A stretch of 5,793 nucleotides of DNA from Escherichia coli (GTDB taxonomy: Bacteria > Pseudomonadota > Gammaproteobacteria > Enterobacterales > Enterobacteriaceae). The stretch's first letter is position 1; every line of letters starts with the position of its first letter. Positions 3,262 to 5,793 of the stretch are shown piece by piece. The DNA is taken from NCBI RefSeq assembly GCF_003334785.1, contig NZ_QOWV01000041.1; one strand, written 5' to 3'. Made by a program: the position numbers and the translations under genes. The notes under the pieces were generated by a model, which was given only the letters and a program-made list of their open reading frames with translations, did not search any database and was not told the DNA's origin.

Positions 3262-4881
3262 ATGGGCAACGCAATGCACTCTCTTAAGACACTTCTACAG
3301 TTACCTTGCGGATGGCGATGCAGTCGACAAATTATTAGCTCTGACGGTATAACCCTCCATCTCCACGGAAAACGCAAAACAGCACAATGTCCTGAATGCT
3401 TTAAGCGTAGCGACTCTGTTCATAGTTGTCGTCGGCGCCGGATACAGCATCTACCCTGCTCAGGGCAGACGCTATGGCTTGTATTTTCCGTCCGCCACTG
3501 GTACTGCCGTAACCCGGCTTGTTCACGTAAAATTTTTGCCGAGTCGCTTGCTCCCTTCGCCAGTTCACACCAGCAGTCTTCACAGGCGTTACAAAATTAA
3601 CAACGTCAACTGGGATTAATAGCTGGAGGTGAGGCTGGAAAACGGGCTGCAACGGCAGTGGGTCTCCGTTGCAGTGCTGATACTCTTCTTCGCAGGCTTA
3701 TCAATACCCCGGAGACGAAACAGTCAGGCGCGCCTCATGTCGGTATTGATGAGTGGGCGTGGCATCGGGGCCACTGCTGCGGTATGTTAATAGTCAATCC
3801 TGATACTCACCGTCCCCTCGTCCTGCTTCCCGGCCGTGATCAGCGTACGCTGGCGACCTGGTTCAGAAAATATCCGGAAATACAGGTTGTCTCGCGTGAT
3901 CGCAGTGGAGTCTATGCGACAGCAGCACGTGAAGGTGCACCTCAGGCCAGACAGGTGGCCGATCGATGGCACCTGCTAAAAAATATTGGTGATGAGCCTG
4001 AACGAATGATGTACAGATATATGCCTCTGATACGTCTTGTTGTCAGAGAGTTATCACTGAAGAAATCACCTGAGCCAGAAATATCTGTGCCTGTAGCATC
4101 GCTCCGTCGTCTGGAACGCCTTAAACAGCACATCCGCAAAAAACGGCATCAGCGTTGGACAGAGGTTATGGCCCTGCATAACAAGGGATGTAGTTTCAGG
4201 GAAATATCCCGTATTACAGGCCTGTCGCGAGTGACAGTCAGTCGCTGGGTGGGTTCAGGAACATTCCCTGAAATGTCAACTAGGCCTCCAAAGCGAGGGC
4301 TTCTGGACCCATGGAGGGAGTGGTTAAAAGAGCAACGAGAATGTGGTAATTATAACTCCGGCCGGATATGGCGGGAAATGGTGGCCAGGGGGGTTACAGG
4401 CAGTGAAACCATCGTCAGGGATGCTGTTGCCAAATGGCATAAAGGCTGGATCCCACCGGTTACTACTGCCGCAAGACTTCCTTCAGTGTCCCGGGTAAGC
4501 CGCTGGTTGATGCCCTGGAGAATAATCAGGGGTGAAGAAAATTATGCTTTCCGATTTATTAGTCTGATGTGTGAAAAAGAACCGGAGTTGAAAATAGCGC
4601 AGCAACTGGTACTCGAGTTCTACCGTATTCTGAAAACCTAAAATAAATCACAGCTAAGCAGCTGGTTCACTCGGGTCCACGAAAGCGGCTCAGCAGAACT
4701 TCGGTGCGTAGCTGCGGGGATGGAAGCTGATGCTGCGGCTATATGTGAGGCAATCAGCAGTCGCTGGAGTACTGGTGTTGTCGAAGGTCATGTAAATCGC
4801 CTGAAGGTGCTGATACGCCAGATGTATGGTCGAGCCGGACTTGAACTACTTAGGCGGAGGGTAATGAGTCCACTGGCATGA
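3262..4881 (+). pseudogene. ISL3-family transposase, ~539 codons in a single frame, interrupted by two in-frame TAA codons (3598-3600 and 4639-4641)
   Basis: The track ORFs 3262..3600 and 3658..4641, plus the unlisted segment 4642..4881, are all in frame 1. Family-like sequence continues directly across both TAA codons (..QALQN*QRQLGLIAGGEAGKR.. and ..EFYRILKT*NKSQLSSWF..STGVVEGHVNRLK..). There is no frameshift. Confidence 0.8.
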
Positions 4882-4924: not shown

Positions 4925-5253
4925 GTGACAGTATGGCCTTTATGTACTCACTTTGTTACCGGTAGCTGGATCATCACTACCGTGCCGCAAATGGTGGTGA
5001 ACAGCATCAATTGTGGAATGAATGTTGCCGAAGCGACCAATGCGCCTCGTTTCCACCATCAGTGGTTGCCGGACGAGCTGCGTGTTGAAAAGGGTTTAGT
5101 CCGGATACGCTCAAGCTGCTGGAAGCAAAAGGTCAGAAAGTGGCGCTGAATGAGGCGATGGGCAGCACGCAAAGCATTATGGTTGGGTCGGATGGTGAGT
5201 TGTACGGCGCATCCGACTCGCGCTTGGTGGATGATTTAACGGCGGGGTATTAA
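4925..5253 (+). pseudogene. ggt: gamma-glutamyltranspeptidase 3' remnant, 5'-truncated at the IS and carrying a -1 frameshift
   Basis: Translation ..VTGSWIITTVPQMVVNSINCGMNVAEATNAPRFHHQWLPDELRVEKG, then after a frame change PDTLKLLEAKGQKVALNEAMGSTQSIMVGSDGELYGASDSRLVDDLTAGY* (stop 5251-5253), matches the GGT C-terminus as I recall it from E. coli. One T is missing from the T-run at 5095-5097. Relative to the remembered sequence there is also a probable 12-nt in-frame deletion (GSPGGSRII read as GSWII). The 5' boundary is approximate. Confidence 0.8.
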
Positions 5254-5258
5254 TTGAC

Positions 5259-5285
5259 ATCCCCCGGCGCAATGTGCCGGGGGAT
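5259..5285. terminator. GC-rich hairpin between convergent ggt and phosphotriesterase-family genes; probable bidirectional intrinsic terminator
   Basis: ATCCCCCGGC (5259-5268), loop GCAATGT, GCCGGGGGAT (5276-5285): a perfect 10-bp stem. It is followed on the plus strand by AATGGTTTTATG and lies between stop codons at 5251-5253 (+) and 5293-5295 (-). Confidence 0.6.
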
Positions 5286-5292
5286 AATGGTT

Positions 5293-5715
5293 TTATGCGG
5301 TCAATAATCGTCCGGGATTATCGATACAGAGTTTTTTGAGGATCGTTTTATCGACGCCGCGCTCCGCCAGATAGGCCAGAAAAACATCTGGAACAAATCC
5401 CCAGCCATTACCGCCATTTTTAGCCCACATTTGTTTAAGGAAGACATCGTGGCTGAGAACAAGCTGATCGGCGTATCCCAACTCAATGAGATGAGCGACG
5501 GCATCGGCAGTCTCCTGCACCCCTGGCGCTATTCCCTCTTTCGGGAAGGTAATGTCTAGGCCAATCATGTCGAATTCCAGCCAGACACCTTTATCAAGCA
5601 TTTTCCGCTGATACGCCACGTCTTTTCCTGACGGATCCGAGTGTGCGAGAGAGACTTTATTTGGCGAGACGCCCATTTCACCTAACACAATGTCGAGTAC
5701 TTCGTAAGCGACTCG
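5293..5715 (-). pseudogene. Phosphotriesterase-family (PTE/Php-like amidohydrolase) gene, C-terminal ~140 codons only; frame closed upstream by an in-frame stop
   Basis: Minus-strand translation ..RVAYEVLDIVLGEMGVSPNKVSLAHSD..LVLSHDVFLKQMWAKNGGNGWGFVPDVFLAYLAERGVDKTILKKLCIDNPGRLLTA* aligns to the C-terminal half of E. coli Php-type proteins (..SMDIT..KANGGYGY..ENP..). An in-frame TGA at 5716-5718 ends the frame upstream, and no PTE-like continuation is seen in any frame of 5719-5793. The track ORF starts at GTG 5688. Confidence 0.7.
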
Positions 5716-5793
5716 TCAGAACCGTATTGATATTTACTGAGAGCTCAGATCAACTTTCCAGGGCAACAGATCGCGTACCCGGTTTGCCGGCCA

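Follow-up and report, generated by a model that had tools for sequence, protein, structure and literature searches.

ISCro1 belongs to the IS66 family and has been described as inserting into loci of E. coli (PMC8764528). In the E. coli APEC strain IMT5155, an ISCro1-type copy of 2,699 bp carrying tnpA, tnpB and tnpC (NZ_CP005930.1 4125224-4127922; locus L001, 6013-8711) ends in imperfect terminal inverted repeats (GTAAGCGACTCG... and GTAACCGGCTCA...), and an 8-bp direct repeat, GGTACTTC, is found on both sides of it (L001 6005-6012 and 8712-8719). A phosphotriesterase (PTE)-family gene disrupted by another IS66 member, with the IS oriented relative to the gene as at the locus described here, is present in CP018979.1 (L011), where gene nucleotides 646-653 (8 bp) are duplicated and both halves of the gene are retained. 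The two elements are distinct: the IS66 member in CP018979.1 encodes a TnpC of 537 aa and ends in GTAAGCGTCAACGG, whereas the TnpC of the ISCro1 type has 523 aa and the element ends in GTAAGCGACTCG. The insertion in CP018979.1 lies 21 bp from gene position 624|625, at which the gene is broken here, and is an independent event. With respect to the gene itself, E. coli K-12 Php/YhfV is a distant paralogue of 292 aa encoded at another locus, and Proteus mirabilis Pmi1525 is a member of PF02126 with metal-stimulated esterase activity (PMC5341072).

At the right end of the window (the whole stretch of 5,793 nucleotides of E. coli DNA that was analysed), the minus-strand frame that closes at the TAA at 5295-5293 was found to stay open up to 5715, the TGA at 5718-5716 being the next codon upstream and the TAA at 5736-5734 the second in-frame stop. 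The translation of this frame reads ...WPANRVRDLLPWKVDLSSQ* ISIRF* RVAYEVLDIVLGEMGVSPNK...RLLTA*. When the window was aligned directly to the intact gene of E. coli strain 7/2 (1035 bp, 344 aa, WP_000656344.1), positions 5293-5703 were identical at 411 of 411 nucleotides to gene nt 625-1035. The protein identity to the intact allele also ended at 5703, with ...GWLRRGD-EVLDIVLGEMG in the intact protein compared to *RVAY-EVLDIVLGEMG in the window. The intact allele is present in both strain 7/2 and strain PI7, and the remnant corresponds exactly to its codons 209-344. When positions 5100-5793 were compared by BLAST with 5,426 complete E. coli genomes, 2,634 genomes were found to have a 100% or near-identical match to the gene part, and every one of these matches broke off at position 604 of the query (window position 5703). 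The matched gene is annotated "phosphotriesterase-related protein" and adjoins a gamma-glutamyltransferase fragment; in its intact form it occurs in approximately half of the complete E. coli genomes. The break between the gene and foreign DNA thus falls at 5703|5704, between codons 208 and 209 (gene nt 624|625), and 60% of the coding sequence is gone from this locus.

A first-pass annotation of this DNA had followed PTE-like translation up to 5715 and placed the break at 5715/5716, which is 12 nt too far out. The in-frame TGA that it reported directly upstream of 5715 is real, and the alignment to a full-length homologue that it proposed returned nt 625-1035 of a 1035-bp gene followed by foreign DNA. 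The features of the remnant and of the adjoining DNA are collected in the table.

Table. Features at the right end of the window (positions are those of the window; cells are empty where nothing applies).
Feature	Position	Strand	Description or basis
Phosphotriesterase-family (PF02126) gene, 3' remnant	5293..5703	-	codons 209-344 and stop TAA of the 344-aa WP_000656344.1
Longest ORF in the remnant that has a start codon (GTG, 131 aa)	5293..5688	-	ORF analysis
AGTACTTC, 8 bp predicted to be duplicated beyond the IS if the event was a simple IS66-type insertion	5696..5703		suggested by the flanked ISCro1-type copy
Outer 90 bp of an IS66-family element (ISCro1 type), tnpC-proximal end	5704..5793	-	90/90 identity to L001 6013-6102
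IS terminal inverted repeat GTAAGCGACTCGTCAGAACCGT	5704..5725		approximately 16/22 positions shared with the opposite end of the reference copy
In-frame TGA	5716..5718	-	inside the IS inverted repeat
Last 19 codons of tnpC (WPANRVRDLLPWKVDLSSQ) and stop TAA (5736-5734)	5734..5793	-	identical to the C-terminus of WP_000381395.1

The DNA upstream of the break was found to be the end of an insertion sequence. Positions 5704-5793 matched 2,919 E. coli records, representing 2,064 of the 5,426 complete genomes (E about 1e-38), on chromosomes as well as plasmids and in up to 26 places per genome, and the matching regions were annotated as "IS66-like element ISCro1 family transposase" or "tnpC: IS66 family transposase". 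Because 15 copies of the element set in unrelated flanks share a boundary at which similarity begins exactly at GTAAGCG, the IS terminus was placed at window position 5704. Positions 5704-5725 have the start expected of an IS66-type terminal repeat (5'-GTAAGCG or GTAACCG), and the four codons at 5715-5704 ("RVAY"), which the first-pass annotation had counted with the gene, are the first 12 bases of that repeat (GTAAGCGACTCG on the plus strand). The TnpC translated from the IMT5155 copy (WP_000381395.1) scored 478 bits against the NF033517 model of IS66 family transposases, for which the cut-off is 180 bits. The likeness to the IMT5155 copy takes in the whole of 5704-5793, so that the GTAAGCG repeat, the stop codon of tnpC and the 19 C-terminal residues of TnpC agree between the two. 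In contrast, the IMT5155 element is inserted in prophage DNA and the present one in a PTE-family gene, where 90 bp of it are visible. The 8 bp flanking the IMT5155 copy, GGTACTTC, and the corresponding 8 bp here, AGTACTTC, are identical at seven of eight positions; a target-site preference was considered as the reason for this and was set aside, the likeness being apparently a coincidence, since 14 other copies have unrelated flanks. The tnpC gene and the PTE remnant have the same orientation and the same reading frame, the latter of which is a coincidence.

No frame of 5704-5793 resembled a PTE-family gene and no alignment to the intact gene was obtained for this segment, either as DNA or as protein, in agreement with the earlier statement that nothing PTE-like lies upstream of the TGA. 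It had been suggested there that the gene was either frameshifted or cut by a junction reaching past the window. The junction was borne out, as the foreign element runs off the end of the window; the frameshift, or a sequencing error in its place, was refuted. Some plausibility is lent to a frameshift or sequencing error, with the gene continuous in other respects, by the point lesions of other strains, in which 1 bp is deleted or TGG is changed to TGA; however, similarity to the gene upstream of 5703 was absent in every frame, at both the DNA and the protein level, and the bases found there are an exact IS66-family terminus complete with the tnpC stop codon, which makes this explanation next to impossible. 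The gene is interrupted by a mobile element and is not frameshifted; of the two stops upstream of the remnant, the TAA belongs to tnpC itself and the TGA to the inverted repeat of the IS. The first-pass annotation had recognised neither the insertion sequence nor its inverted repeat nor the tnpC stop codon.

These findings indicate that an ISCro1-type element of the IS66 family probably interrupts the PTE-family gene by simple transposition. In this course of events, an element of approximately 2.7 kb carrying tnpA, tnpB and tnpC would have transposed in at 5703|5704, oriented like the gene, and just beyond the window would lie the remainder of the IS, then AGTACTTC for a second time and the first 624 nt of the gene. 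The reciprocal junction predicted on the plus strand of the window is ...GAGCCGGTTAC (the tnpA-proximal end of ISCro1) followed by AGTACTTC and ATCACCGCGACGAAGCCAGCC..., so that the far side would consist of the ISCro1 left end, AGTACTTC and ATCACCGCGACG... (gene nt 1-624, reverse complement). The IS copy would accordingly be complete, the 8-bp duplication would be present and the 5' part of the gene would survive on the other side. Simple insertion is favoured because the join falls exactly at the IS terminus and because CP018979.1 shows a simple insertion of an IS66 member into the same gene 21 bp away.

A deletion or rearrangement associated with the IS is a less likely course, although it carries some weight. 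Here the 5' part of the gene would have been deleted, inverted or moved, perhaps together with the genes for the DMT transporter, the glutamine amidotransferase and the PfkB-like kinase, either through a deletion extending from the IS end into adjacent DNA or through IS-IS recombination, and neither a target duplication nor an adjoining reciprocal junction would be present. Only one junction is visible, and an element present in many copies in E. coli favours recombination between copies. Relative to strain PI7 the window has lost DNA at two other places, the genes in the neighbourhood have already become pseudogenes in other strains, and in E. coli PD7 an IS66-family end adjoins the truncated gene of a 'putative zinc ribbon protein' in the same island (L022, NZ_CP074047.1 ~1799699-1799911). 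On the other hand, no positive sign of a deletion was found and the precedent in CP018979.1 is a simple insertion. An older remnant of an IS66 element, found next to the operon in related strains, was considered as the source of the IS end, which would point to a deletion; it was rejected, since the remnant comes from another, diverged member of the family.

Of the event, for which simple insertion remains the preferred reading, one side is seen in this assembly, as the window covers one IS end (90 bp) and then stops inside the element. The end of the contig inside the IS probably reflects the breaking of a short-read contig in a multi-copy repeat, and such a break fits with the abundance of the element (2,064 of 5,426 genomes, at most 26 places per genome). 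The left end of the window (positions 1-187) also lies within an IS, IS100, and repeats at both ends are the pattern expected of a short-read contig. The same pattern, together with a junction that is unique among the collections searched, could be taken to suggest that the last 90 bases were mis-joined at a repeat and that the gene is intact in the strain. Such a chimera is very improbable: the join coincides exactly with the outermost base of the IS inverted repeat, as transposition would give and a random chimera would not, the gene and the IS end have no common repeat to mislead an assembler, and IS disruptions of the PTE-family gene recur in independent assemblies.

The junction was then sought in other collections. 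It was absent from the 5,426 complete E. coli genomes (BLAST of 5100-5793, in which the best matches stopped at 5703), from the GTDB representative genomes (exact 51-mer search), and from IMG/VR and the JGI metagenomes (28-mer search). The 131-aa remnant ORF, and a 127-aa ORF that starts at an alternative ATG at 5676, were looked up as protein products; other broken alleles were found, but not the present allele. The same 131-aa and 127-aa products have been called by gene callers in other assemblies in which the gene is broken. On the N-terminal side, a simple insertion would be expected to yield a 211-aa product ending in ...GDEVL, followed by a TAA from the IS end. A look-up of this product yielded contigs ending in native gene sequence (GAAGTACTCG) and nothing else, with no ISCro1 left junction among them. 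Two metagenome contigs (L006 2820-2827 and L007 1508-1515) end in ...GAAGTACTCG, at most 2 nt from the window junction; they possibly represent the left side of an allele with an IS3 insertion (L004, L005), whose break point they match. The present insertion allele is unrecorded in the collections searched, yet it is an ordinary kind of event.

The other broken alleles, found by the look-up of the 131-aa and 127-aa remnant products, included insertions of an IS3 element (L004 and L005, C-side from nt 630), of IS1 with a 9-bp duplication of gene nt 633-641 (L010) and of the second IS66 member with gene nt 646-653 duplicated (L011). They also included a 1-bp deletion (L008) and a TGG>TGA nonsense change (L012), both within the detectable stretch, a 58-bp deletion between short direct repeats at about gene nt 554-601 (L009 and L013-L015), and, in AP022360 (L003), many indels across the gene. 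The lesions in these assemblies, in the region corresponding to about 5650-5730 of the window, are independent of one another. Four different elements are found near codons 209-218, the ISCro1-type element at nt 624|625, IS3 at approximately 630, IS1 at 633-641 and the IS66 member at 646-653, and this stretch of 30 bp might be regarded as a real hotspot for IS elements, which we consider quite unlikely. The look-up of remnant products detects lesions only within approximately 50 bp, bounded by the last start codon that is in frame upstream and by the ATG at 5676, and because the look-ups were confined to this stretch, the clustering of lesions reflects ascertainment and gives no evidence of a hotspot.

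The intact protein WP_000656344.1 aligned end to end with P. mirabilis Pmi1525 (PDB 3RHG/4QSF; E=2.7e-174), while K-12 Php/YhfV (PDB 1BF6) was recovered as a member of the same Pfam family (E=1.5e-24). Against NF007373, the equivalog model of K-12 Php with a cut-off of 486 bits, the intact allele scored 108 bits and the remnant 36 bits, both below the cut-off. By these comparisons the gene belongs to a subfamily other than NF007373 and is closest to Pmi1525. The Pfam PTE profile (PF02126) matched the remnant with E=1.6e-15 over model positions 175-298 only, of 298, and because the match is limited to this part of the model, the remnant is a pseudogene. The remnant ORF at 5293..5688 is a leftover reading frame and not a functional gene.

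Three motifs of the intact allele fall within residues 1-208 and are missing from the window, HEH at residues 23-25, GEIG at residues 165-168 and NIHM (His199); only LAHSD (His229) and SHD (Asp294) are left in the remnant. We take the HEH, GEIG, NIHM, LAHSD and SHD motifs to be metal ligands of the amidohydrolase barrel, and on this reading the fragment would not be capable of acting as an enzyme. A whole (beta/alpha)8 barrel that includes the N-terminal HxH metal-binding motif and the mid-barrel ligands is not present in the remnant, which cannot form the barrel because residues 1-208 are missing. Judged from its sequence, the gene is predicted to be inactivated: the remnant has lost the first 208 residues of the barrel, and the HxH motif with them.

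The island around the gene showed several other changes. Positions 1-187 of the window lie in IS100 (IS21 family) and comprise the end of istA and the start of istB. At 186/187, the window was found to be without 1,154 bp that are present in PI7, consisting of the rest of istB, the end of IS100 and a small ORF; the IS100 copy in the window is internally deleted or truncated. At 1489-1496, a further 1,666 bp of PI7 (L016 7153-8818) are missing, with an 8-bp overlap at the join, and this loss takes away the 5' end of an 'inovirus Gp2 family' gene and changes the beginning of a gene for an AlpA-like HTH protein. An ISL3-family transposase pseudogene with an internal stop (approximately 3262-4881), followed by a 3' fragment of a gamma-glutamyltransferase gene (4925-5149), is common to many E. 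coli and is unchanged in the window. In strains 7/2 and PI7, the neighbours of the intact gene, encoding a DMT transporter, a glutamine amidotransferase and a PfkB/ribokinase-like kinase, are annotated as pseudogenes (L002 4231-6604; L016 13660-16662), and a diverged IS66 remnant closes the operon. As these neighbouring genes are already pseudogenes in 7/2 and PI7, the operon is in decay across E. coli as a whole.

Taken together, the odd end of the PTE-family gene is explained by ordinary IS-mediated pseudogenisation within an accessory island of E. coli that is itself decaying. Since the window is bounded by repeats, the annotation should mark a pseudogene fragment and not a short PTE-like protein. 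Moreover, the insertion allele could act as a strain or lineage marker.
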